The notes below the pieces were generated by a model. It made no database searches. It was not told the DNA's origin and saw only the letters and a program-made list of their open reading frames with translations. This document shows positions 3,877 to 29,717 of a stretch of 64,000 nt of DNA, one piece after another. Source of the DNA: Paecilomyces variotii (lineage: Eukaryota); the NCBI GenBank assembly GCA_004022145.1, contig RCNU01000009.1. One strand, written 5' to 3'. The position numbers were made by a program, and so were the translations under genes. The stretch's first letter is position 1; each line of letters starts with the position of its first letter.

Positions 3877-3984
3877 GAAGTGGTTGTGATCGCGCCGCGT
3901 CGCAGCTTTCACATGGCGAAGCTCTTCCTATGTGACGGAGAGATGTCGGACTTACTACGGGCCGAAAGTCCTCACCTTAATGTT

Positions 3985-4112
3985 TGAAGGAAGCGGGAGA
4001 AAGCTTGCTTAATTGGATCTAGGAGCTAGGCGAAGCCTATATGGGCTTGCTAGGTCACGTGATCGCTAGGGAGCAGGGCGCCGAAAGGGGCAGCCAGAGG
4101 GGGCCTTTAATA
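3985..4112 (-). repeat. Copia A 3' LTR (128 bp)
   Basis: Direct repeat of 29092-29219 with 6 mismatches, all transitions. Confidence 0.95.
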
Positions 4113-5257
4113 CCTACCCTCGCACTAAGTATTAGGGAACATATAGCAATTATTTAAATAATTAAATATAAATAAATAGGACTAACTAGAAAGCAGATAA
4201 TATATAAAAATAAAGAAATAAGCAGTTTAGTTATATAATTAAGCAGTTATAGTTAAGCTAAGCTGCTTAAGCTATATCTAGAATTTTAAGATTATTAGCC
4301 CTTTAATAAAACTATTAGCAATATTATCTATAGAATTAATATATTTTAAATTAATTATATCTTAGGCAAGCATATTATAAATATAATAGAACTATATATT
4401 AATATATTTAGAGTATTTAATACTAGCAGAAATATAGATTAGATCTTAGGCTTTATTATTATTAATATTTAAAGTAATTAGACTAATATTCTTTATAATA
4501 CCTATATTAATTATTAAATAATATATTTATTAGGCTTTTCTAGCAGCTTTAGAAGCAGCTATATATTCTGCCTTATTAGAGCTAATTAAAATACAGGTTT
4601 ACTTATAAGTCTTTTATAAAATAAATCTGCTAGTAAGTATAAAAATATATTTTAATATAGAATAATATTTATTATAATCTCTAATATAATTAGAGTTATA
4701 ATAGGCTTATAGAAGTCTAATATCTTTATTATCTTTATAGTATATAATACTATAATTAGGGTATTTAGCTAAATAATATATAATATACTTTAAAGCTATA
4801 TAGCTCTTTAAAATTAAATAAGAGTTTCTCTTAGCTAGTAAGCTTATAATCTTAGATAAATTAAGATAAGTCTTAGTAGCTAATTATTAATAATAGCTAA
4901 TACCCTATTAATATTTTTTAATATTAACTATAGAATTAGGCTTATTATTAATTTAAAGCTTAAAATCTATAAGAGATTTAATATAGCTAAAATCTTTCTA
5001 TTTAAAAGATTAGATAAATTTATATATATACTCTGTTTAAATAAGCTATATGCCCTTCTTATTATAAGAGACTTCTATTCTTAAATAATGCTTAATAGGC
5101 CCTAAATTCTTTATTTTAAATTGCTTAGAAATACTATTATAGACTGCCTAAATAATAAATTACTTAGAAGTATATATAGAGAAATTATTAATATAAATAG
5201 TAATATAAATATTTTCTATAATAATTAAAATCTAGAGGTAGAGATTATATAGAGTAT

Positions 5258-5611
5258 TATAAACTAGGGCTATAATACTTAATTTAAACCTACTAAGACC
5301 TAAGATAGATAATAAAAGATAATAAGATAACTAGATCTATATATAATAGTTAGATTAGCTAGTTATAGATAAAGCTGTTAAGACTAAGTTATCTAGATAA
5401 CCTAGTAGAATAGATAAATAGATAAATAACCCTTAAAAGAATAAAAGTTAGATAGATTAATAATTTATTCTAATTATTACTAAATCTAACCTTTAACTCT
5501 ATTATATATAGATAGCTACTCGCTTATATCTCTACTTCTTATCTTATATTCTATTTAATTAGTCTAACTAGTTACCTCTAATAAAAAGCTTTCTTACCCT
5601 AGCTCTTTATA
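5258..5611 (+). repeat. Gypsy B 5' LTR
   Basis: Direct repeat of 12305-12658; similarity extends 3 nt further on each side (TAT, GTT), so the exact ends are uncertain. Confidence 0.85.
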
Positions 5612-8600
5612 GTTTAAATTGCTTAACTAATAATATATTAAGAAAAGAAGAGATATTAAAAAGTAATACTAGAGATTAGTATAGAGAATCTAAATATAGC
5701 CTAAAGCCTAATACTTAACTTAAACTAATAAATATTACTAATTTTAAGCAATTAAGATTAGTAAGTAATACTAGTTCTAATTAGCCTAAACTAATAACTA
5801 TTATAGGCTTAAGAAATCTAATAAATTTAAGAAGTATTATAGACTCTAAGATTTAATAAAAATTAAATATTATTAGTACTAGACCTATTATCTTATTAGG
5901 TTCTTAATATTAATTTAATAGTATAGCAATAAAAGCTCTATAAAATACAATTCAGAGATTATTAAAAAAGATAAATATAGCTGCAGTTATAGAGCTAATA
6001 AAATAAATAAATATAGCTCCTAAATCTGGGTTTATTATTAAACTGCTTAAACCTTATTAATATTAAGCTAAAGATCTAAATATTTACTATTATTAGTGCC
6101 GCTATATAGACTAATACTTTACCTATAATATATTAATATTTTAAACTAAAGCTAATAAGATAAATTATGCTGCTATATTACTTTTAGATAACTATAGAAT
6201 AGCTTAAAGTTACAGACTTCTTACTTCGGCTATAACTTTATAATAAAGATTTTAATAATAGCTATTAAATTATCTTAAGAATCTATAATATTAACCTTAA
6301 ACAGCTGCTATATAATTCTAAAGATTAAAGTAATAGCTAAGACAGACTGCTTAAGAATTTTATAATAAATTTAAGCTTTATAGAGCTAAATTAGCCCTAG
6401 AAAATAATATTTAAAGCTAAACCTTCTTCTCTATATTATAGGAAAATATATAGAATTAATTATTTAAGTGTATATATATTCTAATTAATCTAAACTAACT
6501 AGCTTCTAAGGCTATAATTATTAAATAAAGTCTTAAAAACTCTATTAAATCTTAATTAAAAAACTTTAAAAAAAAGGAATAATCTTAACCTTATATAAGG
6601 AAAAAAGACTAATTCTATCTATATGCACAGGATAAGTAAAAGGATAAATTATTTTAATTAACCTCTATAAAGACCTATTTAAAACGCAAAATAAAAAATT
6701 TTAGATTCTTAAAGGAGTAAAAATAGTTAATAAAAGAAGGGCAATGCTTTAATTATAAAAAAAACAGATATATTAGTAAATAATATCCTAATAAGATAGG
6801 GAAGAACTCTAAACCCCCTAAAGATAAAGGCGTTAGGCTTAATATATTTTAGCGCCTTAAAGGTATAGAGCTAGAGTTTATAACTTTAATAAGTATATTA
6901 ATTAAGGATTATATTATAAAAATAAATATACTTCTTAATTCTTAAGCATACGCTAACTTTATTAATTATAATTTTTTACTATATTATAGATATAAGAGGT
7001 TTTTATAAAAGCTAATAGGTTATACCTTATAAATAAAAGACTAAATAATACTAATTTATAGCTACTTCTCTATTACTATTAATATAAAGAACTTAAAGGA
7101 GAAGATAAAATATTATAAGATTAACTTTTAGATTATTTTTATATAAGAACTTAATATAGTTAAGAAAAATTAAAATATAATCTTAAGATTATTATAATTA
7201 TACTATAATAATCTTATTATAGATTAAAAACGCCTAACTTAAAAATACTAATAAAAGGCTTTACCCTAGATTAAGATTTAAACCTTATAAGTATTTATAG
7301 AGATAGTATAAAATTAACTAATCTATTATATATAAGGGGAATATATTAAAATAGATATAGAAGAAATTTAACTTCCTCTATATTATATATAATTCTAAGA
7401 TATCTTTTTAAAAAAGGAAGCTAAAATATTACCTCTATTAGAAGATATTAAGATTTATATAATTAATCTAATTAATAATAAGTTGCTATTATAGGGGTCT
7501 TTATACCTATACTTTATTAAAGAACTAAATGCATTATAAAAATATTTAAAAGATATATAATAATAAGATTAAATCTAGGCTTTAACTAGCCCAGCTAAAT
7601 TACTAATTATTTTTATCCTTAAAAAAGATAATAAATTACACTTATATATTAATTATTAAAGACTAAATACCTAAATAATTAAGAATTGCTATTTATTACT
7701 ATAAATAGATAAAATACTAGATTAATTAATAAATATAAGATTCTTTATAAAACTTAATCTTTAAAAAGCTTATTATAAAATCTATATATAAAAGGGAGAT
7801 AAATAGAAGATAATATTTAGAACTAGATATAGCTATTTTAAATATCTTATTATATTATTTAGACTATATAATGCTTTAGCTATATTTTAAGCCTATATTA
7901 ATATAGCGCTAAGGGGCCTATTAAATATCTACTGCATTATATACTTAAATAATATCTTAATCTTCTTAATAAATAAGAAAAAATATAAATAGTATATCTT
8001 TAAAGTACTAGAAAGACTCTATAAATATAATTTATATATAAAGCTAAGTAAATATAAATTCTATAAGGAGAAAGTTTTCTTTCTTAGATTTATTATAAGA
8101 TATAATAAGATTAAAATAAATCTCTTTAAGATTAAAACAATTTATAATTAGCCTATATTAAAGACCTTTTATAATATTTAAGTCTTTTTAAAATTTATAA
8201 GTTTTTTTAGAAGATTTATTTATAATTACTTTTTTATTATAATACTATTAATAGACTTACTTAAAGATAGTAAGAATAGTAAAAAAATAGGCTTATTAGA
8301 ATAAATACTTAAAATATAAAAAGCATTTAAAAATTTAAAAACTATATTTATTAAACTACTAATATTATAGTATTATAATTTAGAAAAGCCGATTATAATA
8401 GCTATAAATACCTTAAAATTTACTTTAACTGCTATTTTACTATAGCTTATAAGTAAAATAATAGAGTAATAGTACCTAGTCGCATATTTCTTAAAGAAAT
8501 TTACTGAAATTAAATATTAATATAAAGTATATAACTAGGAACTATTAGCAATAATTAAAGCTTTTAAATATTAAAGATACTATTTAAATAGTAATAAATA

Positions 8601-11600
8601 CCCTGCTTAAGTATAGACTAATTATGCAAACCTATATTACTTCTTTATAATAAAGATTTTAAATAATAAGTAAGTAAAATAGGTAAAGTTATTAGCGGGC
8701 TATAACTTTTATATTAAATATAAGCTAGATTATTTAAATATAGCTAATATATTATCTTAAAAACTAGACTATAAACTCTTAGAAAAGAAGTAGGAGATTA
8801 AATTATTACCTACCCTATAAAAAAAACTAAAATTATATACTTTAAATAAAAAAAATAATATAGATAGTTATAAACACTTACTGCTAAAACTATTAATATT
8901 AAAGATTATTAATAAGGAGATAATCTAAGATCCTCTAAAGCTTAATTTTCTAGAGTTACTTAGGTAGCTCTAATAGAGAGATATCTTTATATTAAAGAAG
9001 ATTAATAATTTAGAGACTAATTAATCTAAAAGCTCTAAATAGATTATAAATAATAAGAATCTGCTATAAAGATAAGATTAAATTTATATTCTAGATAAAT
9101 ATTTATTAAAGTAAGAATTACTGCGAATTTATTATAATAATCTATATACTAGCTATTAAGGAGTTAAAACTATAGAAAAACTACTTAAATAAAAATTCTA
9201 TTAGCTAGATATATAGAATAATATATAAAAATATATAAAGACCTATAATATCTATAAAAGAAATAAAATTCTTAGATATAAATTATATAAATAATTAAGC
9301 TTACTACTTATAGTAAAAAGACCCTAGTAAAATATATTAATAGACTTTATTATTAGCCTATTATTATTAATTTAATAAGGAGTTAAATATAATATAATCC
9401 TAGTAGTTATAGACTAATACTCTAAAATAGCTCTATATATCTTAACCTAAGAAATAATTATAGCAGAAGATTTAGCTAACCTAATAATAGAAAGAATATA
9501 TTACTAGTTTAGTCCCTTAAAATTAATTATTTCTAATTAGGGATTAGTATTTACTAATAAATATTAGATTAAGCTTTATTAATATATATAAATTACCTAA
9601 TTAATAAGCACTACTTTTTATCTATAGATAAATAAATAGATAGAGTACTAGAATTAGACTTTAAAATATTATTTAAAGGTATATATAAATTATTATTAAA
9701 ATAACTAGGTATTATTATTAAATACAGTAGAATATACTTATAATAATATAAAGTATTCTATTACTAAATACTCGCTATTTAAAGCCCTTTATAGCTTTAA
9801 TCTTAATAGCTAGGATAAATATAATATAAAAATAAGGTTAAATATTTTTACTGTTAAAGAATAACTTAAAAAATTATTAGATATTAGGGTAAAGTTAAAG
9901 AAGTACTTATAATATACTATTAAAGTATAAGCAAAATACTATAATAAGAAACATATACCTAAGTTATATAAGATAGGGGATTAAGTTCTTCTATTAATAA
10001 AGAATTTATAAACTAATTAATTAAATAAGAAGTTAAACTACTAATTTTCTAAACCCTATAAAATAATAGAGATAATTAGAAAGTAAATATACTAATTATA
10101 ACTACTAAAGAGCCTAGGCAAGATATATCTAATATTCTATATATTCCTGCTAGAACCCTATAATTAATAAGAAGAGATAAAATTTAAACAGCTAGATCTA
10201 GTTTTTATTAATAAAAAATAAAAATAAAAAAGAAATCCTTAGCGAATAAACCTTTTATAAGAAAAAATAATTCCTAATAAAATAAAAAGAATATCCTTTA
10301 TATAAAAACTTATAGCAAATATTAGAAGATCTTATATATATAATTAAAGCTTTAAAGAAATATTATAGCAAGAATCTTAATAAGACTCTTAATATAAATA
10401 AGCTACCTAAATAAAGATAAGATAAAAAAAAGCTAAGAATTAAAAAGCAAAGTAAAATAAATAGATAATAATACTTTTTCTCCTATTAGGTTTTTTAACT
10501 ATTATTAAATATATTACTATATATATTACTCTTTCTCTGATTTTTTTATAAGATTTAAGAGTTTTAAAAAGAATATAAAAAAAAGGAATTTTAATAAAAA
10601 CAATTTAATTTAACTAGGCTAGCCCTAGCTAATAATCTAAATATAGGCCTATAAAATTATCTTATTTAACTACTTTACTACTATAAAACCCCTTAATAAT
10701 ATCTTTCTCCTCTTTATTAGAGAATAGAGGCAGTCCCTATAATTAGGCAAGTATATTTGCTATATATAAGATATTGCAGTTTAATAAATAGATTATTTTA
10801 TATAACTCTTAAAGGAGATATAATAATTTTAATTTAAAATATAATAGAATTAGTAGAATAGTAATAATACTAAATTAATATTTAATAGTCTTAAATATAG
10901 ATTTCCGCATATATGCCTTTATAAAAAAAATATATATATTTATAGCCTTATTAAAAGACTCTAAATTATTTAAAAGATAAGCTTTTTAGCTAAGACTCTA
11001 AATATAAATTAACTTAGCCTTATATATTAATAGTATAGAGATATATAACTTATAAAAGCTCTTATAATAGAGATATTTTATATTAATATAAAGATAAATA
11101 TACTATTACTTTAAATCTTATACTAAGGCCTTTAAATAATAAAGATATATCTCCTATAGGATAAAAGAAAAGTCTTTAATTAAACTCTCTAGGCTAAAAG
11201 GATTTATAATAAAATCTATCTTAAAGATAATAAAATAATTTATTATTATATTAGTATTAGTAATAATAATTAATATTACTATCTTAATAAGAGCTAAATT
11301 AATTTAAGGAGGAGGTATTTTTAATAGCAGTCTTAACTCTAGGAATAGAAGTTATAATAATATCTTAGATTCTTTAAGTCTTTATACTAGGGACTTCCTT
11401 TATTTTTAACTTTTTTTATAGTTTTTTAATTAGCTAAATAGGAATTTCTTCTATTATAGGTATAATAAGAGTAGTATTATTATAACTATATTTTAATCTT
11501 TAAAGAGAATATAATAAACTAGCCTATACTTTCTTATATATAGGAGGAATTATATTGCTAGATATAAATTAATCCTTATATATCTTAGGTAAGAGATACT

Positions 11601-12304
11601 TCTCTATTAAAAGGTCCTCTACAGATAATTTTAATAAAGATATTTTATTATTATTATTAACAGCAGTAAATAAAATAATCTATAAAAAAAATTATTAATT
11701 CTAATATTATATTAGTAATTAAAGATATAAGAGAAGGAGATAGCTTATTAAACTGCTTATTATCTATATTAAGCTAATAATTAAATAAATAATCTTTAGT
11801 TAGTAGCTATAATAGCTTAAGGCCAGTTATAAGGGCTTTATTAAGAGAGCCTAAAATAAATAAAATATATTTAAAGTACTTAGGAGGTATTACTATATTA
11901 ATTAGTATTATTATATAAACTTAAAGGATTATAACTTATATTAAGTATATATATAGGACTTATAAAAAAAAATAACTTAAAAATCTTATTTTTAATATAC
12001 TTATATAACTATTAGCTATTTTTATATTTAAACTATTAAAAATAGCATTAAATAAGCTATAGAAATAAAAAAAGAATAGCTTAATATATAAATAGAAAGA
12101 TAGGAGTTAGTTAATAAAGAATAAAAATACTCCTAATCTCCTAAATAAAAATATTAAAATAAAGCTAATATTAGATAAATTTATATAATAAATATATTTT
12201 AATAATAACTTATTATTATTACTATAGCTACGCCTAAATATTTAGACCTATATAATAAACTTTATATAGCTTAAGATAAGCCTTTTAATAAGAGAGGATA
12301 TTAT

Positions 12305-12658
12305 TATAAACTAGGGCTATAATACCTAATTTAAACCTACTAAGACCTAGGATAAACAATAAAAAATAATAAGATAACTAGATTTATATATAATAGTTAA
12401 ATTAGCTAATTATAGATAGAGCTGTTAAGACTAGGTTATCTAGATAATTTAGTAAAACAGATAGATAGATAAATAACCCCTAAAGAAATAGAAGTTAAAT
12501 AGATTAGTAATTTATTCTAATTATTACTAAACCTAACCTTTAACTTTATTATATATAGATAGCTACTCGCCTGCGTCTTTATCTCTTATCTTATATTCTA
12601 TTTAACTAGTCTAACTAGTTACCTCTGATAAAGAGCTTTTTTACCCCAGCTCTTTACA
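12305..12658 (+). repeat. Gypsy B 3' LTR
   Basis: Preceded by a PPT; ends in unmutated TTTACA. Confidence 0.88.
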
Positions 12659-12659
12659 G

Positions 12660-13233
12660 TTAGTTCACGTGATCTAGAGCCAGCTAGGTCCTTGACAGAA
12701 TAACTACGCCTAACAGTTAAGCCCTGAGTTCGATTTCGCCCGAGGCCGTGAGCTTTTTAAGCTAGGTTCACGGTGCTTAGTTAAGCACAGGCCGGGCTGA
12801 TGGATGCTTAGTTAAGCACGAACCGACGGGGTGCTTAGTTAAGCACGGGCGGGGTAGGCGCGGGGCAGTAGTTAACCGGCAAAATCTTAGTAACTTTCGA
12901 TTTTGGGGCCTAACGAGCTTATAGCGAGGGTAAAGCCCGTAGCTTAACTATTAGTCGGGGCGAAGAAGTCCTAGCTAGGGGGAGCTAGGCAGATCTAGGC
13001 GTGCGCTGCGGCGGCGTGCTAGCTGAACGGCTCGAGGGCGAGCCTGATTTAGGGGAGAGATGCTGTAAGGCGCTGGCCTTAGCAGTGCCCCGCGAACCCC
13101 CGGGAACCCCGACTATTAGGCTATATAGTTCGGTGCTGGCTTAACTACGCTTAGGCGTAGTTATTGTGGTCTTTTTAGCTGAGTGGTTAAAGGATCCAGT
13201 TCATGTGACCTAGAGCCAGCTAAGTCCTTGACA
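12660..13233 (+). mobile_element. Non-coding miniature LTR retroelement (TRIM-like, element D): truncated 5' LTR, 366-bp internal region, complete 170-bp 3' LTR
   Basis: PPT AGGGGAGAGA at 13051-13060; LTR TGTAAGG...CCTTGACA at 13064-13233; 12662-12697 repeats the last 36 bp of the LTR (13198-13233); TAGAG TSD follows at 13234-13238. Confidence 0.75.
13064..13233 (+). repeat. Element D 3' LTR (170 bp) with TATA-like CTATATAG (13121-13128)
   Basis: TG...CA ends with near-perfect terminal inverted repeat (TGTAAGG / CCTTGACA); PPT 3 nt upstream. Confidence 0.75.
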
Positions 13234-15983
13234 TAGAGATAGTTTAAACCCGGCACTAAGTAAATACTCTGCTAAGGTATTATATTATATCTTTATAGAA
13301 GAGGTTAATCTATAAAAAGCTTAGTCTAGTTTATAAATTAAGATATTATCTTTACTTTTATAAAAGCTAGTAGGCTAAAGTATATAAATATTATATTTTA
13401 ATTTCTTATTTAAGAAGGCTTATATAATATTAGCTTAAAGAATAGCCTAGCTATAATAAGTAATAAATACTATTAATATATTAATAGTTATAGTAAAGAC
13501 TACTAGAGTATAGGTTATTATATTAAATATAATCTTATTAAGTATATTATTATAAATAATTTAATAAGCTTTATAAATAATTAAACTATTAAAACCTTTT
13601 TTCTTCTTATATACTTATCTGCTAAGTATAAGATAAATCTTAAAGAGAAGCTTATCTTAATAAATTAAATATTAGTACTTTTATTATATTAGCAGGTTAA
13701 TTTCTTTTTTTATAGCTTTCTGCTATTAAAGAGCTTTAGTATATATTATAATAGTTTTATAAGATTTAAAAGTATTTAATTCCTTCTAAAATAAGATTAT
13801 ATAAATCTTTATTAAATTAGTAAATTAGTACTAGATAATATTAAAATCTTTAATAAGGTTAATTTCTTTATTATATGCCGCAGAATTCTTAAATTCTATT
13901 AAATTTAATATAATAGCTGAGATAGTAAGCACTAGCTTATAAAGCTTAGGGTTAAGCTTTACTAGCGCAGCAATATTATTTATATAAAAATATAGAGTTT
14001 ATATTACTATTTTAATAATAATATCTAATAATAATATATTATTTTTATTAGATATACTAAGAAATAGGGCTAATTTACCCTTTAGGAGAAGCTTACTTAA
14101 TAGAGCTTTAGGGCTAGTTAGCAAATAGTATATTAAAGCTTTAAATTAGTATAGATATAAAGCTATAATAAGAGTATTTCTCTAAGCTTAAGCTAGGATA
14201 TACTATTTAATAGGCTTAATATTACTGCTATAAAATATAGCTCTTAAGATATAATTATAAAATAATAAAATTAAAGTAGAGATTTAATTTATAATATATA
14301 TATTATATTAAATAACATATAGCTAAAGAAAATACTTTAAGCTAAAGTTAATTATTATAGCTTAAGTATATTTTATAATAATTCTTATAGAGCATTTACT
14401 TATATTATTTTATTAAAGTATATAAGTAGCTATAGGTTTATAGGTAATACTTAGTATTTTAAAGAAAATATCTAGAGCTTTAATATAGAGCTTATTATTT
14501 AACTAGATATAGGCAATTTAAAAATCCTCTATATTTAATTAATATATTAAGTTATTAATAAAAGATAAGATATAGGCTCTATTTACTATAAGATATACCT
14601 ATTTATAGTAGATAATATTATCTGTAATTAATAGTATATATCTTATCTTAATATAGTTAAAAAGGTCTTTATCTATTTTATAATCTAGCATATACCTGCT
14701 ATTAATAATATTAATATAGAGATATTTAGCAGGTACTATAGCTTTAAGTATAGGCCTTTATAAGATCTATCTTATAATTTTAGCCTATTAGTAAATAGTA
14801 TAGAATAAAAGATCTTTAGCTCTTATAATAATAATGCTAAAAAGAGAGTTATATATTAAATAAAGTAAGTTACCTTAGTTAGCATAATTAAAAATTTAGT
14901 ATTATTCTATTAAGGATCTAGTAATATAATAGAAAAATAGAGCTTTAAATAGCTTAAGATTAATTAATTAAGCAATAATATTTTATTTAAGAGTACTTAT
15001 AGCAATAATAGGTAAAATAATATAGACTTATTTATTAAAAGGGGGTATTATAAAGTATATAAGATATTTTTACTCTCTAAGAATAATAATACTATAAAAG
15101 TAATTACCTTCTAGAGTCTTTATAATAAAATATTTATTATCTTTACCTATAAAGATCTTAAATCTCTAGCTCTTTAATAAAGCAAATAATAAGATATTAT
15201 TATTAGCTCCTAGAGCATAGTAAATATCTAAGATAAATAGTAGAATATTATTAAATTATACTAGAATAGTACTAGTTTTTTAAGATAATAATTATTCTCT
15301 ATAAATACCCTTAAAGTAAGCTATAGAGATCTTTATAGATTTAAATATTAAGAATACTTCTTTTTAGATAGTAAAATAGATATCTAAGCTAATATCTAGT
15401 ATTTAATTCCTCTTTATATAATATATAGGTATTGCTCCTAATATAATAGAAATACTATTAACTCTATAAATTATAGATTAAACTAAGAGATTAAGATTTA
15501 ATAATATTATAGATTTAGAGATTATATTATCTTAATTCTATAGTAGATATAGATTAAGGTATATTATCTAGTACTTCTCTATAGTATAGCTTATTTTATT
15601 ATAGATACTATATAGTTTTTATAGAACTTTATATTTTAAATCTATAGACTTTATAGCGGGCTTTAATATTATTAAAGTATTTTAAGCTATTAGTCTCTAT
15701 ATAGATCTAATATTAGTAATAGCCTTTTTATATTAGATAAGGTCCTTTAATACCTCTTTAATATTTAGATTTTTAATATTTAAGTGCTTAATAATACTAA
15801 TAGTATAAAACTGCTTAAAATAATTATTTATTTAGTTAGGCTCTTATTTAATAATAAAATTTAAGAATTAATTATAAAAGAAATCCTTTAATATAATATT
15901 AAGACCTTAAAGCTTTATAAGAATATATTCTACCTTTATATAAATAGAGATAAATAAGATTAATATAAGAAGATTAATAAGCT

Positions 15984-18900
15984 TATTAAGGTATAGGCTT
16001 AAGGAGTAGGTTAGAATAAATAGAATAAGGTAATTAATACTAGGACTAGCTATAAGATCTCTATTTAGCTAATTTAAACTAGAATAGGCTATTATAAGTA
16101 GGCTTAGTAAATAAGATATAATTTAAGGAACTTAAATTTAGATTAAGCTATATACTAAAGATATCTTTATAAGGTTATATAATTCTTTATATAATCTAGA
16201 AGAATATAGACCTTACTCTTTTAAATTAAGTAAGTATTAGCTAATAAATTAATTATTCTATCCCTTATACTAGTACTATAATAGTATTTCTCTTCTTAGG
16301 GTTAAGCTCTATTAAGATTATCTCTAGGCTTTAGCTTATTTAAATAGCGGCAATAAAAGTTTATAATAATCTTCTAAATATATTATAAATAATATATAGA
16401 CTCTTTAATTAAATTATTATAACCTAATTATTTAATAATATATTATAATTAGAGGCCTCTATATTTATAATATTCTTATTAAGAGTTTAAGATATTTTTA
16501 ATAATTTATTTTTTAAGGCTATTAACTTTAATAAGTAGTAATAAAGATTATCTTTATTTAAGTATAAGGTCTTTAGTAATAGGGCAGAATAGGCTAATAT
16601 TAAATATAAGATAAATATATATTAAGGCAGGCAGATTAAGCTAATAAATATATAAGCTAATAACTTTAATAATATAGAATAGGCTAAGATTCTTTTAATT
16701 AAATTTCTTCTAGAGATACTAAGTATAAATATTTTAAATATTTAATTAAATAGACTATTTTATATAATAATAGTAGGCTAAGGTTTAGTAATAATTAGTT
16801 TACTTTTTATAATAAGCTTAGGCAGTATAAATTTAAGTATAGATATAATCTATAATATCTTATATTTTCTTAATAAAGGCTTTAGTATCTTTAGCGGCAG
16901 ACTAGTTTATAGGCTAAATAGATTTAAATCTTATATATAGATAAAACCTATAATTAGTAAAGAAAAGTAATATTTTAATAATCTTAAAATAGTAGGAATT
17001 TAATATAAACTTAGCTAGAGATAGCTAGTTAACCTAGTTATCTTATAGATAATTAATATAGATATATAAGTATTATTTTAGGATAGTATTTATCCTCTTA
17101 ATTTAATTATTAGTTTTAAGATAATAAGTAGTAGATAGCAGGTTTATAATATTTAAATATTAAGTTAAGTATTTCTAGAAAGCAGTAATAAATTAAAGGC
17201 TTTAATTAAATATTATAGTCTTTAATAGCCTATAAAGCTTCTATATATAATAAATATATAATTATACTATTCTTTTAATATTATAAATAGCCTAGCAGAG
17301 AATAAAATATCTTATCTTTATAAATTAGTCTATAATAACTAATATAGTATTATAATCTTAGTAAGGTATAAGTCTAATAATAAAATTTATTAAAATATCT
17401 TACTAAGAGTATTTAGGGATAAGAAGCTAGTATAAGACTTTTTAATAGCCTTTATTTAAGGATATAATATAGTAGTAAATATAGTAATTCTAGGTCTAGC
17501 AATTTATATATTAATATATATTTAATTAATAATACTCTTATAAGATTAAGTTATAAAGCTTATATTTTTTAAAATATTTAAATATATACTTATTATAGTA
17601 TTCTTATAATAGGCGAGCTTTTAGCTTATTATAGTTAAGAATATATAAGCAGTCTCTATTAAGGTATAGGCTCGGGGAGTAGATTAGAATAAATAGAATA
17701 AAGTAGTTAATACTAAGACTAGCTACAAGATCTTTATCTAGCTAATTTAGACTGAAACGGGCTATTATAAGCAGGCTTAATAAATAAGATATAGCTTAAG
17801 GAGCTTAAATTCAGATTAAACTATACGCTAAAGATATCTTTATAAGATTATATAACTCCTTATATAATTTCTTATACTAGTACTATAATAGTATTCCCCT
17901 CCTTAAAATTAAGCTCTATTAAGACTATCTCTAGGCTTTAGCTTATTTAAATAATAGCAATAAAGTTTATAATAATCTCCTAGATATATTATAAGTAATA
18001 TATAGGCTCTTTAATTAAGTTATTATAACTTAACTATTTAATAATATATTATAATTAAAGGCCTTTATACTTATAGTATTCTTATTAGGAGTCTAAGATA
18101 TTTTTAATAATTTATTTTTTAAAACTATTAACTTTAACAGGCAGTAGTAAAGGTTATTTTTATTTAAATATAAGATCTTTAATAATAAGGTAAAGCAGGC
18201 TAATATTAAATATAAGATAGATATATATTAAGGCAGGCAGGTTAAGCTAATAAATATATAGGCTAATAACCTTAGTAATATAAAATAGGCTAAGATTCTT
18301 CTAATTAAATTTTTTCTAAAAGCGCTAAATATAAATATTCTAAGTATTTAACTAAATAGACTATCTTATATAATAGTAATAGGCTAAGGTTTAATAGTAA
18401 TTAATCTATTCTTTATAATAGGCTTAAGTAATATAGATTTAGGTATAGATATAATTTATAATATCTTATATCTTTTTAGTAAAGGCTTCGGCGTCTTTAA
18501 TAATAAGCTAGTTTATAGGCTAGATAGGCTTAAATCCTATATATAGATAAAACCTATAATTAGTAAAAAAGGGCAATACTCTAATAGTCTTAGAATAATA
18601 GGAGTTTAATATAAACTTAGCTAAAGATAGCTAATTAACCTAATTATCTTATAGGTAGCTAATATAGGCGCGTAAATATTATTCTAGAATAGTATTTATC
18701 CTTTTAATCTAATTATTAGTCTTAAGATAATAGGTAGTAAATAGTAGATTTATAATATCTAAATATTAAATTAAGTATTTCTAAAAAGTAGTAATAAATT
18801 AAAGATTTTAATTAAATATTATAGTCTTTAATAGCCTATAAAGCTTCTATATATAGCAGATATATAATCGCGCTATTCCTTTAGTATTATAAGTAGCCTA

Positions 18901-21900
18901 GCAAAGAATAAAGTACCTTATCTTTATAAATCGGTCTATAATAACTAGTATAGTATTATAACCTTAGCAAGGTATAAGTCTAATAATAAAATCTATTAAG
19001 ATATCTTATTAAAAGTATTTAGGGATAAAAAGCTAGTATAAAACTTCTTAATAGCCTTTATTTAAGAGTATAATACAGCAGTAAATATAATAATTCTAAG
19101 TCTAATAATCTATATATTAGTATATATTTAGCTAGTAATACTCTTATAAAATTAAATTATAAAGCTTATATTTTCTAAGATATTTAGGTATATACTTATT
19201 ATAATATTCTTATAATAAATAGACTCTTAGCTTATTATAATTAAAAATATATAAATAGTCTTTATAGTATAAATATCTTTCTCTTTACTAGTAATTAGCT
19301 AGTGTAATCTTAAGGTAATAATTAGCTTTATAATCTAAGGCTTATAGGATAGACTATATTAAGTTATTAAATAAGTAAGCTATATCTAATAAGTCTTTAA
19401 TACCTAATAAGTACTCTAGTTTATTAGGCATAATAGAAAAACTTAACTAATCTTACTTAATAAGCGAGGCTACTTCTTTAATAGGCTAAATAGTCTCTTT
19501 AATAGACTAAATTATCTCCTTAGCAGGTTAAATAATCTTAATAGACTAATTAGGCAGTAGAATAGACTAAATAGCTTTTTTAGGCTAAATAAATTAACTT
19601 TTTAAAGTAAATTAAATAAATATTCCTATAAGTTTAGCAGGATTTTTAACCTCTTAAGCTATTAAATCGGCAAAGCAGATATACCTTATTATTTAACTCC
19701 TAATAATAGCTTCTAGTTTTAAAGATCTTTAAATCTATAAATTAAAATTCTCCTTTTTTAGGACTATTTAGCTTTAATACTATAATTATTTATCCCCCTT
19801 CTTAGGGAGATCTTCTAACCTCCTAGTTAGGGTATTAAGCTTTATTTCTTACTTTTTAGGATAATATATAATTTAAAAATTAAACTAGGATAAAAACTTA
19901 AACTAATAAGCCTATTACTAGTTTAGCAGCTTAATTAATATAAAATATTCTAGATTACAATAGTTTATAATAACTTTAATTAGTAATAGTATATCTTTAA
20001 GCTTAAAATACTACTTCTTAAAGTAGCAGATAATTACTAGCAATTCTTTATTATAAATCTTATAATTATACTCTATAGTAAAGAGCTTCTTTAAGAAAAA
20101 TATAATAAGATATAAGATTCCTTTATTATTATATTAAAATATAACTCTAGCTAATATATAGTTAAATAAATTAATTTTAATTATAACCTTATAGGTCTAG
20201 TTAAATAATTTTAAAATTAGGGCTTAAATAAATATTTTTTTTAAGGCTTTAAAACTAGACTAATAGGCGGGTATTTAATTAAAGAGAATTCCCTTCTAGA
20301 TTAAATTTATAAGCAATATAATTATCTTAAAAAAGTTATAAATAAACTAATAATAAAAATTACTAAACTTAATAAAGGCTTATATATTAATTATATAAGT
20401 TAGGGTCTTCTATTTAGCAATTATTTTTACCTTATCTAAATCTATCTTAATATAGTCTCGGCTAATAATAATACTTAAGAACTTAGTCTTAAAGATAATA
20501 AACTTATACTTCTAGATCTTTATATATAGGCCTATTTTATATAGCTTTTATAAAATAATATAGATATATTAAATATATTTAAAACAGATTATACTATATA
20601 TTAAAATATTATTAAGGTATATAATATAAAAGATATTAAAATAATCTTATAGGGTATTATTAATAAACTATTAGAATATTACTAATACTTCTATTAAGCT
20701 AAATAATATTACTAATAATTTAAACAGGCTAAATTAAATATAAAAGATAATTAAATATTCTTATCTCTTTTTAATATAAAAATTATTAAATATAAAAATA
20801 ATATTAATCTTTATAAAATACTTTATTTCTTTTAAATTATTTAGGGTCTCCTTAATTAGGGGTAAAAAATATTAATCTTTAATAATTATTATATTTAGGG
20901 CTTAGTAATCTATATAGATCTATATCCCTTTATTAGGCTTCTTAATAAATAAAATTAGAGATATAGCAGGCAATAAACTTAAGTAAATAAATCCCTTTCT
21001 TAAATTTTCTTTAATCTATTTTTTTAAAACCTTTAATTTATCTTAAGATATAGTATATAAAAATCTAAAAAAGAGTAACTTCCTCTTTAATAACTTAATA
21101 TTATAGTTATAAAAATAATATAATAGCAGGTATTCAGCCTTCTTAGGAGAAAAAATATTAATATAATCTTTAAATTCCTTAAGCAACAGGCAGGCAGGGT
21201 CTTTTTTTTAGACTTATTTAATTCTTAGAATAGTATTTAAGTCCTCTAAAATAATTATAAACATTTAAATATTTCTTTAAGTATAGGCAGAATAAATAGC
21301 TAAAAAAATAAAGGCTATATTTCTCTTTTCTAATCCTCTAAGTCTTAAGGGTAAGTATTAAGGTAAAGCCTTTAAGAGAATATTATATAAGGCAGGTATT
21401 TTAATTAACTTTAGAGATATATTATAATTTTTTTAATAATAATTGCTATTAAAGGCAATATTATAAGCAGTAAATTATAGATATAGGTTATAATACTTTA
21501 ACTAGAGGAATTCTAAAATAATAAGATAGTGCGCTAGTTAGACAATATAAAACTTAATATCTTTCTTAAAATAATCCTTAATTCTTATATCTATCTAGAT
21601 ATAGTATATAATCTTCTTATCCTCTAATTCTCTTCTATTAAATATATATAGGGTAATTAGGCTTTTTAGGGGGATAAGCTTTAACTTCTAATCTTTAGCC
21701 TATTCTTAATCTATAAATTTTTATCCTTTAGCTCTAGTATTAAGCAGGATATAAATTAATAAGTAGATCTTTTTCTTCTTCTTTTCTAATATTATAGGCA
21801 ATATTATTAATTTTAATTATTATAGGTATTCCTTAAGGTTAATTCTATAAATAACAGTAGCGGAGATTTAAATAATATATAATTCTTAAGCTTAGCTATA

Positions 21901-24900
21901 ACTTACTTTAGGCTTATTCTTTTTATTAAAAACTAGCTAAAAAATAAATTATATAAGTCTAAGAATTAAATTGCCTAGGGAGTTTAGGGATAAGATTTAT
22001 ATATAGCTATAATCTAGATCTTCTAACAGTTATTTAAATATAAATAATCTCTAATATAATATTTTAGGGAGCTATAATAGAAGCAAGCGCTAATTTTATA
22101 ATATAATAAATTATACTCTCTCCTACCCGGGCGTCTAGAAGTACTTAAATTTATTAGGTTATATAATTATATTAGGGCTAATTTACTTTTCTATATAAGG
22201 CTTCTCTAAGGCTAATTATTATATCTTATAGCCGAGGTAAAATTTAAAATAAATAAGAGAGACTAGATATATTAAATAGATTTTAAAATAGCGATATAAA
22301 TCTTTATAATAAGGGGCTAGTTTATAATATACTAGCAGTAATAATTCTTAAGATCTTATAAAAATTTAGCAAATTAATAATACTTATAACTTAAGGGCTA
22401 ACTATATAATAATATTTCTTAGAGTTCTTAATTAATAGCTTACTTAAACAGAGTAAATAATATTCCTTTAAGCATTTCTTCTTCTAGTATTAGGCGCTAG
22501 AACTTAATAAAAAAGATTTTAAATTCCTTATTAATTTAATAGAGGTTAAATAATTTATTATATATATTGTTTATATAATTAGGGTTACTAAACATATACT
22601 TTAAGATATTTAAAATCTCTTAATAGTTGCTAAAAATATAAATTCTATCTCTAATATATAGTAATACTTAGGTATAAAATATATCTTTTAAATAATTAGT
22701 TATATAAGCTATATAGCTCTAGGGAGTTAAAAATTAGTCTTAATTAATTATTATCTTTCTTTAAATCTAGGCTATAAAGTATTAAAAATCCTTTTAGTTA
22801 CCTTTAAACTTATCTAAGTTAAAGAGTCTCTTTAAAAGTCTAGGGGTAAAAAAAGATATAATAATAGGCGCCTTAAATGCTCTTATTAAAGCAGCTGCAA
22901 GTCTTTTAATATTAAGCTTAAGTTTAAATATAAACAAAGATATATTTATAGTAGGTATAACTATATAGCAGGCTTAATCTCTCTTAAAAATAGCTTAGAT
23001 ATACTGCTATTCTTTTTCCTAAAGCTAAATCTTTTAATATTATTAAATAGCCTTAAGTTTAATAACTTCTTATTTAAATCTTTATTAAATAGTAGTAAAT
23101 TCTTGCTAAAGCTCTTAAAAATATATCTTAGCCTAATAATTTATTTTATTTATAATAGTCTTAGCTTTATTAATATATTTATATACTAGGCGATAATAAT
23201 TATACTATTCTAGCCTATAACTAATAGTAATATACTTAATAAATTCTCCTAAAATTATTAGCAGGAATAGAGGAATTAGGATAAATATTATTAATAATAT
23301 TAACTCTTAAATAGAAGCTATATAGTATTAAGATATAGGCTTAAAGAGCAGATTAAAACAAATAAAATAAGATAGTTAATACTAGGACTAGCTACAGAAT
23401 CTCTATCTAGCTAATTTAGACTAAAACGGGCTATTATAGGCAGGCTCAGTAAATAAGATATAACTTAAGGAGCTTAAATTCAGATTAAACTATGCGCTGA
23501 AGATATCTTCGCGAGATCATATAACTCCTTATATAATCCCTTATACTAGTACTGTAACAGTCTCTATAATATAGGTATCTTTCTTTTTACTAGTAGTTAG
23601 CTAATATAATCTTAAGATAGCAGTTAGCTTTATAATTTAAGGCTTATAAGATAGACTATATTAAGTTATTAAATAAGTAAGCTATATTTAATAGATCTTT
23701 AATATTTAATAAATACTCTAGTTTATCAGATATAATAGAAGAACTTAACTAATTTTATTTAATAAGTAGGGCTATTTTTTTAATAAGCTAAATAATCTCT
23801 TTAGTAAATAGAATTATTTCCTTAATAAATTAAATAATTTTAATAGACTAATTGGGCGATAGGGTAAACTAAATAGCTTTTTTAAGCTAAATAAATTAAC
23901 TTCTTAAAGTAAATTAGGTAAGTATTCCTATAGGTTTAATAAGATTTTTAACTTCTTAAGCTATTAAGTTAGTAAAGTAAATATACTTTATTATTTAATT
24001 CCTAATAATAGCTTCTAGATTTAAAGATCTCTAAATCTATAAGTTAAGATTCTCCTTTTTTAAGATTATCTAGCTTTAATATTATAACTATTTATCTCTC
24101 TCTTTAAAGAAATCCTCTAATCTCCTAGTTAGAGTATTAGGCTTTATTTTTTATTTTTTAAGATAATATATAATTTAGAAGTTAAACTAGAATAGAAATT
24201 TAAATTAATAGGCCTATTACCAGTTTAATAGCTTAATTAATATAAAATATTCTAGGTTATAATAGTCTATAATAATTTTAATTAGTAATAATATATTTTT
24301 AAGCTTAGGGCGCTATTTCTTAAAGCAGTAAATAATTACTAGCAATTTTTTATTATAAATCTTATAATTACACTCTATAATAAAGAGCTTCTTTAAGAAA
24401 AATATAATAAAATATAGGATTCCTTTATTATTATATTAGGATATAACTCTAGCTAATATATAATTAGATAAGTTAGTTTTAATTATAACCTTATAGGTCT
24501 AGTTAAATAGCTTTAAGATTAGGGCTTAAATAAATGCTTCTTTTAAGGCTTTAAAATTAGACTAATAGGCGGATATTTAATTAAAGAGAATTTCTTTTTA
24601 GATTAAGTTTATAAGCAGTATAATTATCTTAGAAAAATTATAAATAAACTAATAATAAAAGTTACTAAATCTAATAAAGGTTTATATATTAGTTATATAG
24701 GTTAAGGTCTTCTATTTGGCAATTATTTTTACCTTATTTAAGTTTATCTTAATATAGTCTTAGCTAATAATAATACTTAAGAACTTAGTCTTAGAGATAA
24801 TAAACTTATACTTCTAGATTTTTATATATAGGCTTATTTTATATAGCTTCTATAAAATAGTATAGATATATTAGATATATTTAAAATAGGTTATATTATA

Positions 24901-27900
24901 TACTAAGATATTATTAAAATATATAGTATAAAAGATATTAAGGTAATCTTATAGGATATTATTAATAAACTATTAAAATATTATTAATACTTTTATTAAG
25001 CTAAATAATATTATTAATAATTTAAATAGGCTAAGTTAAGTGCGAAAGGTAATTAAGTATTCTTATCCTTTTTTAATATAAAGGTTATTAAATATAGAAA
25101 TAATATTAATCTTTATAAAATACTTTATTCCCTTTAAATTATTTAGAGTCTTCTTAATTAAAGATAGAGAGTATTAGTTTTTAATAGTTATTATATTTAA
25201 GGCTTAGTAATCTATATAGATTTATATCCCTCTACTAGGCTTCTTAATAAATAGAATTAGGGATATAGTAGGTAATAAGCTTAAATAGATAAATCCCTTT
25301 TTTAGGTTTTTTTTAATCTATTCTTTTAAGACCTTTAATTTATCTTAAGATATAATATATAAAGATTTAAAAGGAAGTAATTTCTTCTCTAATAGCTTAA
25401 TATTATAATTATAAAAATAATATAATAGTAGGCGCTTAGCCTCTTTAGGAGAAAAAATATTAATATAATTCTTAAACTCTTTAGGCAATAGGTAAGCAAA
25501 GTTATTTTTTTAGATTTATTTAATTTTTAGAGCAGTATTTAAATCCTTTAGAATAATTATAAATATTTAAATATTTCTTTAAGTATAAATAAAATAGGCG
25601 GCTAAGAAAATAAAGGCTATATTTCTCTTTTCTAGTCTTCTAGGTCTTAAGAATAAGTATTAGAATAAAGCTTTTAGGAGAATATTATATAAGATAAATA
25701 TTTTAATTAGCTTTAAGAGTATATTATAATTTTTTTAATAATAATTATTATTAAAAGTAATACTATAGATAGTAAATTATAGATATAAGTTATAGTACTT
25801 TAATTAAAAAAGTCTTAAGATAATAAGATAATACGCTAGTTAAATAATATAGAACTTAGTATTTTTTTTAAAATAGTCTTTAATTATTATATCTATCTAG
25901 ATATAATATATAATCTTCCTATCCTCTAGTTCTCTTCTATTAAATATATATAAAGTAATTAGACTCTTTAAGGGGATAGGCTCTAATTCTTAGTCTTTAG
26001 CCTATCTTTAGTCTATAAATTCTTATCTTTTAGCTCTAGTATTAAGTAAGGTATAAGTTAATAAGTAGATCTTTTCTTTCTTCTTTTTTAATATTATAAG
26101 TAATATTATTAATTTTAATTATTATAAGTATTTTTTAAGATTAATTCTATAAATAATAATAGCAGAGATTTAAATAATATATAATTCTTAAGCCTAGCTA
26201 TAACTTATTTTAGGCTTACTTCTTTTATTAAAAACTAGCTAGGGGATAGATTATATAAGTTTAAAAACTAAATTGCCTAGGGAGTCTAAAAATAGGGTTT
26301 ATATATAGCTATAATTTAAATCTTCTAATAATTATTTAAATGCAGGTAATCTCTAATATAATATTTTAGGGAGCTATAGTAAAAGCAAGCACTAATTTTA
26401 TAATATAATAGGCTATATCCTTTCTTGCCTAAGTATCTAGAAGTATTTAAATCTATTAGATTATATAATTATACTAGGGCTAATTTATTCTTTTATATAG
26501 GGCTTCTCTAAGGCTAATTATTATATTTTATAGCTAGTATAGAACTTAAAGCAGGTAAAGGAAACTAAATATATTAAATAGGTTTTAAAACAGCAATATA
26601 AGTCTTTATAATAAGGGGTTAGTTTATAATATACTAGCAGTAATAATTCTTAAGATCTTATAAAAATTTAATAAATTAATAATATTTATAATTTAGGGGC
26701 TAATTATATAATAATATTTCTTAAAGTTCTTAATTAATAGCTTATTTAAGCAGGGTAAATAATATTTCTTTAAATATTTCTCCTTTTAGCACTAGGTATT
26801 AGAACTTAGTAAAAAAAATTTTAAATTCTTTATTAATTTAATAGAGGTTAAATAGTTTACTATATATATTATTTATATAATTAGAATTATTAAATATATG
26901 CTTTAAAATATTTAGAATCTCTTAGTAATTATTAAGAGTATAAGTTTTATTTCTAATATATAGTAATACTTAGGTATAAGGTATATCCTTTAAGCAGTTA
27001 ATTATATAGGCTATATAGCTCTAGGGAATTAAGAATTAGTCTTAGTTAATTATTATCTTCCCTTAGATCTAGGCTATAAAATACTAAAAATCTTTTTAAT
27101 TACTTTTAAACTTATTTAAGTTAAAAAATCTTTTTAAAAATCTAAGGGCGGAGAAAGATATAATAATAAATATCTTAAATACTCCTATTAAAGTAACTGT
27201 AAATCTCTTAATATTAGGCTTAGATTTAAATATAAATATAGGTATATTTATAGTAAGAATAGCTATATAATAAGCTTAATCTCTCTTAAGAATAGCCTAA
27301 ATATATTATTATTCCTTTTTATTAAGCTATATTTCTTAATATTATTAAATAGCCTTAAGATTAGTATTTTTTTATTTAAGCCTTTATTATATAGCTATAA
27401 ACTCTTATTAAAATTTTTAAAATCTTATTTTAATCTATTTAATATATTAGCTAGCTTTATTTATAAATAACTTAGCTTTAGCAATATATTTATATATTAG
27501 GCAATAATAGTTATATTATTCTAGCCTATAGCTAGTAGTAATATACTTAATAAACTCCCCTAAAATAGTTAATAAGAATAGGGGAATTAGGGCAAGTATT
27601 ATTAATAGTATTAACTCCTAGATAAGAGCTATATAATATTAAGATATAAGCTTAGGGAGCAGGTCAGAATAAATAGAATAAAATAGTTAATATTAAGATT
27701 AGCTATAAAATCTCTATTTAGCTAATTTAGATTAAAATAGGCTATTATAGGTAGGCTTAGTAAATAAGATATAGCTTAAAGAACTTAAATTTAAATTAAG
27801 CTATATACTAAAGATATCTTTATAAGGTTATATAATTCCTTATATAATCTAGAAGAATATAGACCTTACTCTTTTAAATTAAGTAAGTATTAGCTAGCGG

Positions 27901-27936
27901 GTTAGTTATTCTATCCCCTATACTAGTACTATAATA
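15984..27936 (-). mobile_element. RIP-inactivated Ty3/Gypsy chromovirus family C, outer copy (about 6.05 kb without the nested copy)
   Basis: 300-bp LTRs at 15984-16283 and 27637-27936; TSD AAGCT at 15979-15983 and 27937-27941; PPT on the minus strand next to the left LTR. Confidence 0.92.
17657..23559 (-). mobile_element. RIP-inactivated Ty3/Gypsy family C, inner copy (5903 bp) nested in the outer C integrase region
   Basis: 234-bp LTRs at 17657-17890 and 23326-23559; TSD GTCTC at 17652-17656 and 23560-23564; PPT AAGGAGGGGAATAC (minus); RT relic FINNTL...YLNNILIYS (YLDD at 20608-20619); chromodomain-like relic at about 18000-18060. Confidence 0.93.
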
Positions 27937-29091
27937 AAGCTCTATTAATTCTTAGTAGAGCTTTACTTAATATATAGATCTAGTAATACTAAATTATTTA
28001 TTTAGCTCTAGCTAAATATTAGTAATAATAGGCTAGTCTAAAAATTAAATAATTTTAAGAATTTTAGAGTCTAGCAATATTATAATCTAATTCTTTATAA
28101 TAGATTAAGTAGTCTTTTATTATTAGCTATTTCCTTTAAGTAAAGTGCTTTAGTTAAAGATATTAAAATTCTTAATATTAAGATTATTAATAGTAAGCTT
28201 AAATTATTAGTTTTAATTCTAAAAATTACTGCTATTTAATTACAGCTAAAGTATCTTTAGCTATTTAAATATATTATTAATTTGCTTATATAGTAGATTA
28301 ACTTTAGTACTATAATATTTCTCCTGCTACTATAATAGGGGCTAATTTAATAGAGTAATAAGGTTTATTACTAGCATTAACTGTAGTATTAATTACTAAT
28401 AGCCTTAGGTATTTAAATATAAGAATAAACCCTAATATATTTCTAATATAATAGGATAAATATTATTTAGTTCTTATTTTATAGATTAGTATAATATCTC
28501 CTATAGAGGAATATATAGTAAAAAAGTAGTTTTATAAACTAACTTTATTAAAGTATTACAGGAGATCTCTATATAAATCTCCTCTAGCTATATAAATACT
28601 ATCTTAGTCTCCTCTTATAATTATTTATTAGGAGTAAGGTCTATAAGCTCTATAGAAAGGATTAGTTTATTTAATAAAAGGTTAGCTACTTATTGCAATA
28701 CTAGAATAGCTAGAAATCTTTTAAGTATAACTGCCTATATATATATAATAAGTATTAGACTATAATTTAGATTTAATTAAATAATTAATAGAGCTTCTTT
28801 AAATATAATATAGCATCTAAAATAATAGTATTATTATATTATATTAAACTATAATAGGTAACTAAATAGATCTATTTTTAAGCTAGTATTTTTAATAATT
28901 AGGGCTTTTTAAGAATTTATTAGAGAAAAATTTTCACAGGTTAATAAAATACTAAAACTAAGCATATTTTAAAGCTATAAAAGCTTAAAATAAATAATTA
29001 GAACCTAAGGAATTTAATAGGATAATTAAAATATCAATTTAACAGGTAACTAGCTTATAGCTCAAGGGGTAAAGATAAGGGCGATATAACC

Positions 29092-29219
29092 TGAAGGAAG
29101 CGGGAGAAAGCTTGCTTAATTAGATCTAGGAGCTAGGCGAAGCCTATATGGGCTCGCTAGGTCACATGATCGCTAGGGAGCAGGGCGCCGAAAGGGGCAG
29201 CCGGAGGGGGCCTTCAACA
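29092..29219 (-). repeat. Copia A 5' LTR (128 bp), minus-strand TGTTGAAGG...CCTTCA
   Basis: TG...CA ends with short terminal inverted repeat; followed on the minus strand by GGTTATATCGCCC (29091-29079), a putative PBS. Confidence 0.95.
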
Positions 29220-29717
29220 ATGTTAAGTTACTTAATGCTGTGCACTGACATAGGTACACTTGTTTTACATCTACTGGAAACCTAAATATTCAAAAAGGTC
29301 ACTTGATATAAATAGACCGCGTCTCACAATGCCACCTAGCAGAGGTAGTCTGTATTTATAGACAACTGCCTATGGAAATCCCTGAAAATGGCTGCTGTCA
29401 ACTTGTCAAGCAGCTTCGGGCGATGCTCCCCCAATCGTCTCCACATTCTCGGCCTCGTCCTTATTTTCGACCGAGCCTCCGCGTGGAGTTAGATCCGGAG
29501 ATAAATGATGGTCGAAAATGCGCCCCCAAAGAGAATTCTAGACGCAATAATAATAGCTCAGCTGTACGCTGTGAACTGGCGCTTAGGCAGCAGAATTTCT
29601 CGACTCCGGTCTGTCGACTTGCTCAGAAAAGAAAGAGCTTTAATACGCAGTGGTTGCCCATCTTAGGAGTACGGAAGCCGTGAGATACAATATTGTCGCG
29701 TTGGGAAAGGACACCAG

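Follow-up and report, generated by a model that had tools for sequence, protein, structure and literature searches.

The GC-rich island at 12662–13233 of the window, which is the whole 64-kb stretch of DNA analysed, is probably a dead, 5′-truncated copy of a TRIM-like element of the self-priming type (element S) that integrated in a single event while fused with a RIP-decayed Ty3/gypsy element (element A). The anatomy of S, the complementarity between its PBS and its own LTR, the existence of other copies, and a target site duplication (TSD) common to both elements are direct observations. The fused A+S insertion is the more unusual part, more so than S itself, and it had been missed by an earlier, sequence-only reading of the window, in which neither the joining of S to the decayed gypsy element nor the one TSD around the pair was recognized.

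By base composition, host DNA of about 49% GC occupies positions 1–3984 and everything from 29220 on, and a 25-kb block of about 19–21% GC lies between these parts. The block carries the dinucleotide signature of RIP, with a TpA/ApT ratio of 1.3–1.4 compared to 0.7 in the flanks and a (CpA+TpG)/(ApC+GpT) ratio of 0.22 compared to 1.2. The host, an ascomycete, degrades its repeats by RIP; the nearest clusters of a UBE2O-like protein and a ChAPs protein encoded in the window are ascomycete. The bounding repeats of the block and the two host genes are the following:

3985–4112 and 29092–29219: LTRs of the outer element, 128 bp, GC-rich, TGAAGG...TTCAACA
37728–40496, plus strand: gene for a UBE2O-like ubiquitin-conjugating enzyme with UQ_con and SH3-B_UBE2O domains
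54493–55536, minus strand: exon of a ChAPs (Chs5p-Arf1p-binding) protein, beside the repeat block

In a self-comparison, the two outer LTRs are about 95% alike over an aligned 111 bp. A purine-rich tract precedes the right LTR, and the outer element is bounded by a perfect 5-bp TSD, ATGTT, the block and its TSDs together spanning 3980..29224. Given the bounding 128-bp LTRs and the perfect ATGTT duplication, the 25-kb AT-rich block is a single old LTR element filled by nested insertions, and its own short LTRs escaped RIP, as did S. Among the contents of the block are decayed gypsy elements on the minus strand at 15984–27936 (RT_RNaseH_2, E 2e-23), laid out in tandem as LTR–interior–LTR–interior. 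A repeat of about 300 bp is found there at four positions (15984, 17657, 23326, and 27637), and a 4.3-kb unit at 19254–23538 recurs at 23556–27849 (85%). Self-BLAST of the AT-rich block at low stringency returned nothing beyond composition noise.

The island itself measures 572 bp and has a GC content of 0.535, compared to 0.19 in both flanks. Its features are as follows:

12662–12697, plus strand: remnant of the 5′ LTR of S, the last 36 bp, with the first 134 bp absent
12698–13063, plus strand: internal domain of S, 366 bp, non-coding, devoid of a coding signal
12699–12713, plus strand: PBS of the self-priming type, AATAACTACGCCTAA, one base (G, 12698) past the end of the 5′ LTR
12772–12854, plus strand: three tandem near-palindromic hairpin units, GTGCTTA..TAAGCAC, seen as direct repeats and predicted to form hairpins
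13051–13060, plus strand: PPT, AGGGGAGAGA, 3 nt upstream of the 3′ LTR
13064–13233, plus strand: 3′ LTR of S, 170 bp, TG..CA, read from the sequence with boundaries backed by contigs
13122–13127, plus strand: TATA-like box TATATA in the LTR, likewise a reading of the sequence
13142–13163, plus strand: hairpin in the LTR with a perfect 9-bp stem, TAACTACGC, loop TTAG, GCGTAGTTA, found as a self-match and predicted to fold
13151–13165, plus strand: complement of the PBS in the LTR, the predicted first transcript bases (start of R) if S self-primes

The PPT, the 170-bp LTR, the 36-bp remnant, and the 366-bp non-coding interior had all been proposed by the sequence-only reading, and each lies where that reading had placed it. 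The LTR ends in the terminal inverted repeat TGTAAGG / CCTTGACA, and the remnant is identical to 13198–13233 at 33 of 36 positions, with all three differences being transitions. The missing LTR positions 1–134 are found nowhere else in the 64 kb, the best match in an ungapped purine/pyrimidine scan (97/134) being at noise level. With two 170-bp LTRs and the 366-bp interior, S would measure about 706 bp when intact. Coding capacity is absent: the longest stop-free run amounts to 56 codons, and a six-frame comparison of S with Pfam gave no match at E ≤ 1. A search of 12400–13500 against Rfam yielded no family at gathering score and just two chance-level hits (E 0.05 and 1.1). The tandem-hairpin stretch at 12772–12854 is the most variable part among the copies of S described below, with indels in a contig from run X16, and one may guess that these predicted hairpins act as a packaging or dimerization signal.

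The 15-nt PBS had been claimed to be the perfect reverse complement of 13151–13165; this is exactly the case, and the pairing extends to 18 nt at 94%. To gauge chance, the longest complement between a 30-nt leader and the S LTR was recorded in 20,000 shuffles and for 5,000 random genomic 30-mers. No complement longer than 12 nt turned up in either set (0/20,000 and 0/5,000, that is, none in 25,000 controls), as against the 15 nt observed, and the complementarity between the PBS and the LTR of S is far beyond chance. At 15 nt it also exceeds that of Tf1, in which the self-priming complement comprises 11 nt. The TATA-like box upstream of the complement was confirmed; against the distance of about 22 nt given in that reading, position 13151 lies 29 nt from the first base of TATATA and 23 nt from the last. 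The first 30 nt after the 5′ LTR are devoid of TGG, so that no tRNA-type PBS is seen, in keeping with the earlier claim of a tRNA-independent PBS; the window itself offers no tRNA gene for comparison. When 13151–13233 is co-folded with the leader, the first 15 nt are predicted to pair with the PBS at −50.1 kcal/mol, and a U5 stem-loop is predicted between the paired 5′ end and the PBS in the same fold. The hairpin at 13142–13163 has a predicted fold energy of −13.6 kcal/mol; its 5′ arm repeats the core of the PBS, and its 3′ arm is the complement of that core. Transcription may instead start at 13198, the left edge of the LTR remnant, and the PBS complement would then lie in U3. A search for the same kind of signal in element A and the outer element gave best complements of 9 nt in A, where the match is AT-rich, and of 5 nt; this comparison is uninformative since RIP blunts the test.

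From this arrangement a life cycle of intact S can be proposed. First, S would be transcribed from its LTR promoter, using the TATA box at 13122 and a start near 13151. In a second step, the first 15 or so nucleotides of the RNA (13151–13165) would fold back on the PBS one base past the 5′ LTR. The RNase H of a helper reverse transcriptase would then cut the duplex, the resulting 5′ fragment would prime the minus strand, and the plus strand would be primed from the PPT. S encodes nothing and hence needs the Gag, reverse transcriptase, and integrase of an autonomous gypsy element; a Ty3/gypsy element would supply all three. For Tf1, the 5′ RNA primer made by RNase H has been demonstrated by experiment (Lin and Levin 1997, cited in a passage of PMC6934838), whereas for S both the start of the RNA and its cutting by RNase H are predictions.

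The complement of the PBS might alternatively have a function unrelated to priming from the 5′ end of the same RNA, such as long-range pairing that circularizes the RNA, or the PBS might be served by a host-RNA primer. It is true that the extra copy of the PBS core, which sits beside its complement in the LTR hairpin, is more than simple self-priming needs. Yet a PBS one base past the LTR combined with a complement 29 nt after the TATA box is the arrangement of the Tf1 type (passages of PMC2864245 and PMC4600332), and no matching tRNA (in the window) or Rfam family (in 12400–13500) was found. A role outside self-priming is accordingly improbable.

Copies of S were sought in Logan contigs of four public sequencing runs aligned to window positions 12300–13600: X1, the likely source; X8, which carries the same species label; X3, guessed to be RNA, with contigs that cover part of the GC-rich island; and X16, a metatranscriptome. 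The structure of the island is real, since contigs of X1 bridge both of its edges without differences (12592–12969 and 13169–13403). The 170-bp LTR is an independent repeat, since contigs begin to match at 13064 (one from X3) or at 13066 (two from X8) after unrelated flanks, and one X3 contig stops at 13233 and runs on into an unrelated flank. One X16 contig has an LTR end of no fewer than 55 nt, compared to the 36 kept in the window, followed by the same spacer and PBS and then by sequence from 12719 onwards. A single X16 contig of 406 nt spans 12744–13167 with 23 mismatches plus 24 gap letters, continuing through the PPT into the LTR. Two X8 contigs cover 12752–12925, one with 5 differences and the other with 9; variants at 12715 and 12736 occur in four to five X8 contigs, while 12696–12915 is covered in X1 solely by the locus's own contig. 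Scans of metagenomes with a 22-mer of the LTR–PBS junction and a 20-mer of the start of R gave 0 matches each. The other copies by which the sequence-only reading was to be checked thus exist—as the LTR alone with other flanks, as an LTR–PBS junction, and as a diverged internal copy—and the sequences point to S being a member of a small repeat family and not a MITE.

A MITE had been named from the outset as the alternative. Under that explanation, the 18-nt inverted repeat (12696–12713 / 13151–13168) would bound a DNA transposon or MITE about 473 bp long and the LTR-like features would be incidental, and the 94% agreement of its arms, which start with CA, is what such an element might show. 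Against it, the boundaries of copies fall at 13064 and 13233 rather than at the arms, no loose end at 12696/12703 or 13161/13168 occurs among those listed, and the 170-bp unit is found standing alone, preceded by a PPT and bounded by TG..CA termini. The 8 bp outside the arms, moreover, agree at just 5 of 8 positions. This origin of the repeat is very improbable indeed.

A weightier alternative is that S arose once, by internal deletion from an autonomous self-priming gypsy element, and does not belong to a short TRIM-like family that propagates; the remaining matches would then represent leaders and 3′ ends of full-length elements. Two X8 contigs match 12752–12925 and then continue with about 38 nt unlike the window, so that the interior may be different or longer in some copies; in X16, too, one contig shows a loose end at 12925. 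Summed contig depth in X8, a rough guide and not a copy number, is far higher over the LTR (a peak of 2055 at 13136–13179, about 40 times that of single RIP-decayed contigs at about 30–55) than over the interior (1.5–6 times single RIP-decayed contigs), as would be expected of such a derivative. However, the X16 letters past 12925 still resemble those from 12926 onwards, which indicates local divergence rather than a new interior; one X16 contig crosses 12925 in a single piece (12744–13167); and depth is present in X8 over 12916–13003. A one-off deletion is therefore an unlikely, if serious, competitor.

In the RNA library X16, the contigs resembling S have depths of 252, 130, and 62, compared to 3–8 for contigs of decayed flanks. 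This fits transcription of S in a related strain or species, bearing in mind that these are summed depths from a mixed community and that an RNA library may contain DNA. The RIP indices of the island (2.72 and 0.78) lean towards RIP, and at 5 of the 8 listed positions that differ between the island and X8 copies, the window has A or T where the copies have G or C; the remaining three are transversions clustered at 12866–12869 near a contig end. The data fit a copy of S that was lightly mutated by RIP, its long neighbors having been destroyed, and light mutation agrees with short length and low copy number.

Self-primed reverse transcription, in which sequence past the 5′ LTR pairs with the part of the LTR taken as the 5′ end of the mRNA, is described in passages of PMC2864245 and PMC4600332. 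Sections of PMC6934838 and PMC4600332 treat it as a known mechanism, and indeed the rule, in the Tf1/sushi group of fungal gypsy elements, which according to parts of these three papers includes Tf1 and Tf2 of Schizosaccharomyces pombe, Tj1, Maggy, Skippy, Cft-1, Boty, Grasshopper, and Afut1. S shares with this group the lack of a tRNA-type PBS, a fungal host, and complementarity between PBS and LTR. It differs in having neither Gag nor Pol and in bearing the additional PBS-core copy that forms a hairpin in its LTR. S could consequently only be a non-autonomous derivative, relative, or parasite of self-priming gypsy elements.

In form, S resembles a TRIM as defined in a passage of PMC6934838, with a 170-bp LTR, a short non-coding interior that includes a PBS and a PPT, an inferred length of about 706 bp, and related contigs that cover parts of that interior. 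Where a TRIM has two short direct repeats (about 100–250 bp), this copy shows one complete 170-bp LTR and 36 bp of the other, and X16 shows a 5′ LTR of at least 55 nt joined to the PBS. S departs from TRIMs in having a PBS that is not complementary to a tRNA and in residing in a fungus; in addition, this copy is truncated, and whole copies are not among the contigs. The lack of a 5-bp TSD of its own is a property of this copy and not a statement on the family. Retrozymes and Cassandra, which are TRIM-like and have LTRs bearing a ribozyme or a 5S gene, are small and non-autonomous like S, but, the chance-level hits aside, no hammerhead, 5S, or other Rfam family was detected in 12400–13500 even at E ≤ 10. 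The sequence-only reading had overstated the novelty of S: self-priming was already known in fungal gypsy elements of the Tf1/sushi group, and TRIMs have been reported from fungi, where they serve as markers (according to a citation in part of a paper). PMC6934838, the one paper found by a literature search to treat both topics, raises self-priming for bivalve TRIMs only as a possibility, and no described self-priming TRIM was found in that search. S thus combines known kinds, resembling the Tf1 type in function and a TRIM in form, and a miniature self-priming element is to be expected in a lineage where self-priming is the rule. It is otherwise a normal component of a fungal repeat nest.

The island has no TSD of its own, and its left edge is the end of the 3′ LTR of element A. 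The features of the combined insertion are:

5250–5254, no strand: TSD TAGAG, left copy, flanking A+S
5255–12658, plus strand: element A, a RIP-decayed Ty3/gypsy element with its 5′ LTR at 5255–5611 and its 3′ LTR at 12302–12658
12659–12661, plus strand: spacer GTT separating S from the 3′ LTR of A, identical to the three bases following the 5′ LTR of A (5612–5614)
13234–13238, no strand: TSD TAGAG, right copy, flanking A+S

The LTRs of A form a 360-bp direct repeat at 90%, and all 36 of the 36 differences are transitions. The domains of A follow the gypsy order on the plus strand and include RT_RNaseH_2 (E 2.4e-12), RT_RNaseH (E 5.8e-10), a weak Integrase_H2C2 (E 0.043), and SH3_Tf2-1 (27.6 bits at a cut-off of 30). 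A 5062-nt contig of X3 with a depth of 1020 (the locus has about 5) ends with 34 nt that resemble the end of A's LTR (12629–12662) and may derive from an expressed, undecayed relative of A.

A taken alone is not flanked by a TSD: to its left lies TAGAG, to its right GTTAG or AGTTC. Loose ends before 13233 in one X1 contig and two X8 contigs read like 5220–5249, with five transitions and no transversions over 29 nt, and the uninterrupted target in these other copies carries a single TAGAG. The flank mismatch of A and the read-through copies together establish that A+S (5255–13233) occupies a single target site bearing a single 5-bp duplication. At the inner junction, other copies of A's LTR diverge directly past 12658 (two contigs in X1 and three in X8), whereas LTR copies that continue into A's leader match to 12661 (three contigs in X8). 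A match of GTT between A's leader and the A–S junction has a chance of about 1 in 64. No homology between A and S is detectable, the score being reached by 12 of 60 shuffles for the LTR and by 12 of 60 and 8 of 60 for the interior. With the outer element included, the full set of comparisons of the interior and LTR of S with A or the outer element gave 12/60, 8/60, 17/60, 8/60, and 12/60 shuffles reaching the score and are not significant. Given this lack of homology, it is the fusion that points to A as the helper of S.

A further candidate, according to which the island is a complete insertion in A's leader with a 6-bp TSD (ACAGTT / ATAGTT), was rejected on the ground that the downstream flank continues the sequence left of 5250 in other copies. 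The likeness of that flank to A's leader is weak, 5 of 200 shuffles reaching the score. Immediately right of the TSD, 13239–13265 begins with ATAGTTTAAA and resembles the junction of A's 5′ LTR and leader (5609–5635), which may be due to chance or to the target itself having been an A-like leader.

As to how A and S came together, the cDNA of A and a left-truncated cDNA of S may have been joined before integration; alternatively, the two cDNAs may have been integrated together as two donors, their inner ends then being joined by the host. The integrase would have acted in a single event, on the left end of A and on the right end of S. Linear cDNA of an LTR element carries at its right end the bases lying between U5 and the PBS, which the integrase normally trims off. 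The GTT at the junction would represent these bases at the unprocessed right end of linear A cDNA. Later, RIP would have destroyed the long, multi-copy A and touched the short S lightly. That A+S is the fossil of one such two-donor event, preserving the left end of a gypsy element, the right end of an unrelated miniature element, and the spacer in unprocessed form, is a tentative proposal that we regard as possible without favoring it. Somewhat better placed, and at best evenly balanced, is the suggestion, which would follow from a single integration, that S cDNA was handled by the same integrase as A; it would be circumstantial support for the mobilization in trans proposed in the sequence-only reading.

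The junction could also have been made after integration, by nested insertions followed by deletions or recombination and not from fused cDNA. Truncated LTRs arise most commonly from nested insertion with subsequent deletion, elements are densely nested in the window, and a second A–S fusion was not seen. On the other hand, such a history needs a second element to have landed exactly on the TSD of the first and a deletion to have started from the exact end of A's LTR, removing a TSD together with 134 bp of S, and it leaves the identity of GTT with A's own post-LTR bases to coincidence. A post-integration origin is rather unlikely, and a single integration offers the simpler account.

Integration of A and S as one fused unit has a parallel in the complex insertions of grasses (Sabot and Schulman 2007, part of PMC1950507), in which head-to-tail fusion with one 5-bp TSD denotes a single integration. 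Here, too, one TSD encloses both elements and none encloses either alone. The grass cases described in that part of PMC1950507 have outer LTRs that are alike and a middle LTR that is shared, whereas the outer LTRs of A+S are unrelated, the left one belonging to A and the right one to S. A+S also differs from them in that S lacks 134 bp of its 5′ LTR and in that the junction retains the 3-nt spacer that follows A's LTR.

If S is read correctly, a self-priming signal of the Tf1 type can ride on a non-coding parasite of 700 bp, and the cis requirements of self-priming would fit into about 100 nt of LTR and 15 nt of PBS. The fusion of A and S under one TSD would then be a rare natural record of an autonomous element mobilizing a miniature one. 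Should the two-donor explanation hold, a self-priming miniature element shares a particle or pre-integration complex with a gypsy element of unrelated LTRs, and bimolecular concerted integration happens in vivo. S also shows that very short, low-copy elements escape RIP in degraded repeat blocks, where they remain as possible promoters.

The LTR of S and that of the outer element (29093–29217 of 29092–29219) are not significantly alike, 334 of 500 shuffles reaching the score. Two short words are confined to the vicinity of these elements. The 10-mer TCACGTGATC, with CACGTG at its core, has only two occurrences in the 64 kb, at 4055–4064 in the 5′ LTR of the outer element and at 12665–12674 in the LTR remnant of S. 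The 10-mer GCACTAAGTA likewise has only two occurrences in the window, 4122–4131 and 13253–13262, each 10–20 nt past an LTR end, namely that of the outer 5′ LTR and that of the 3′ LTR of S.
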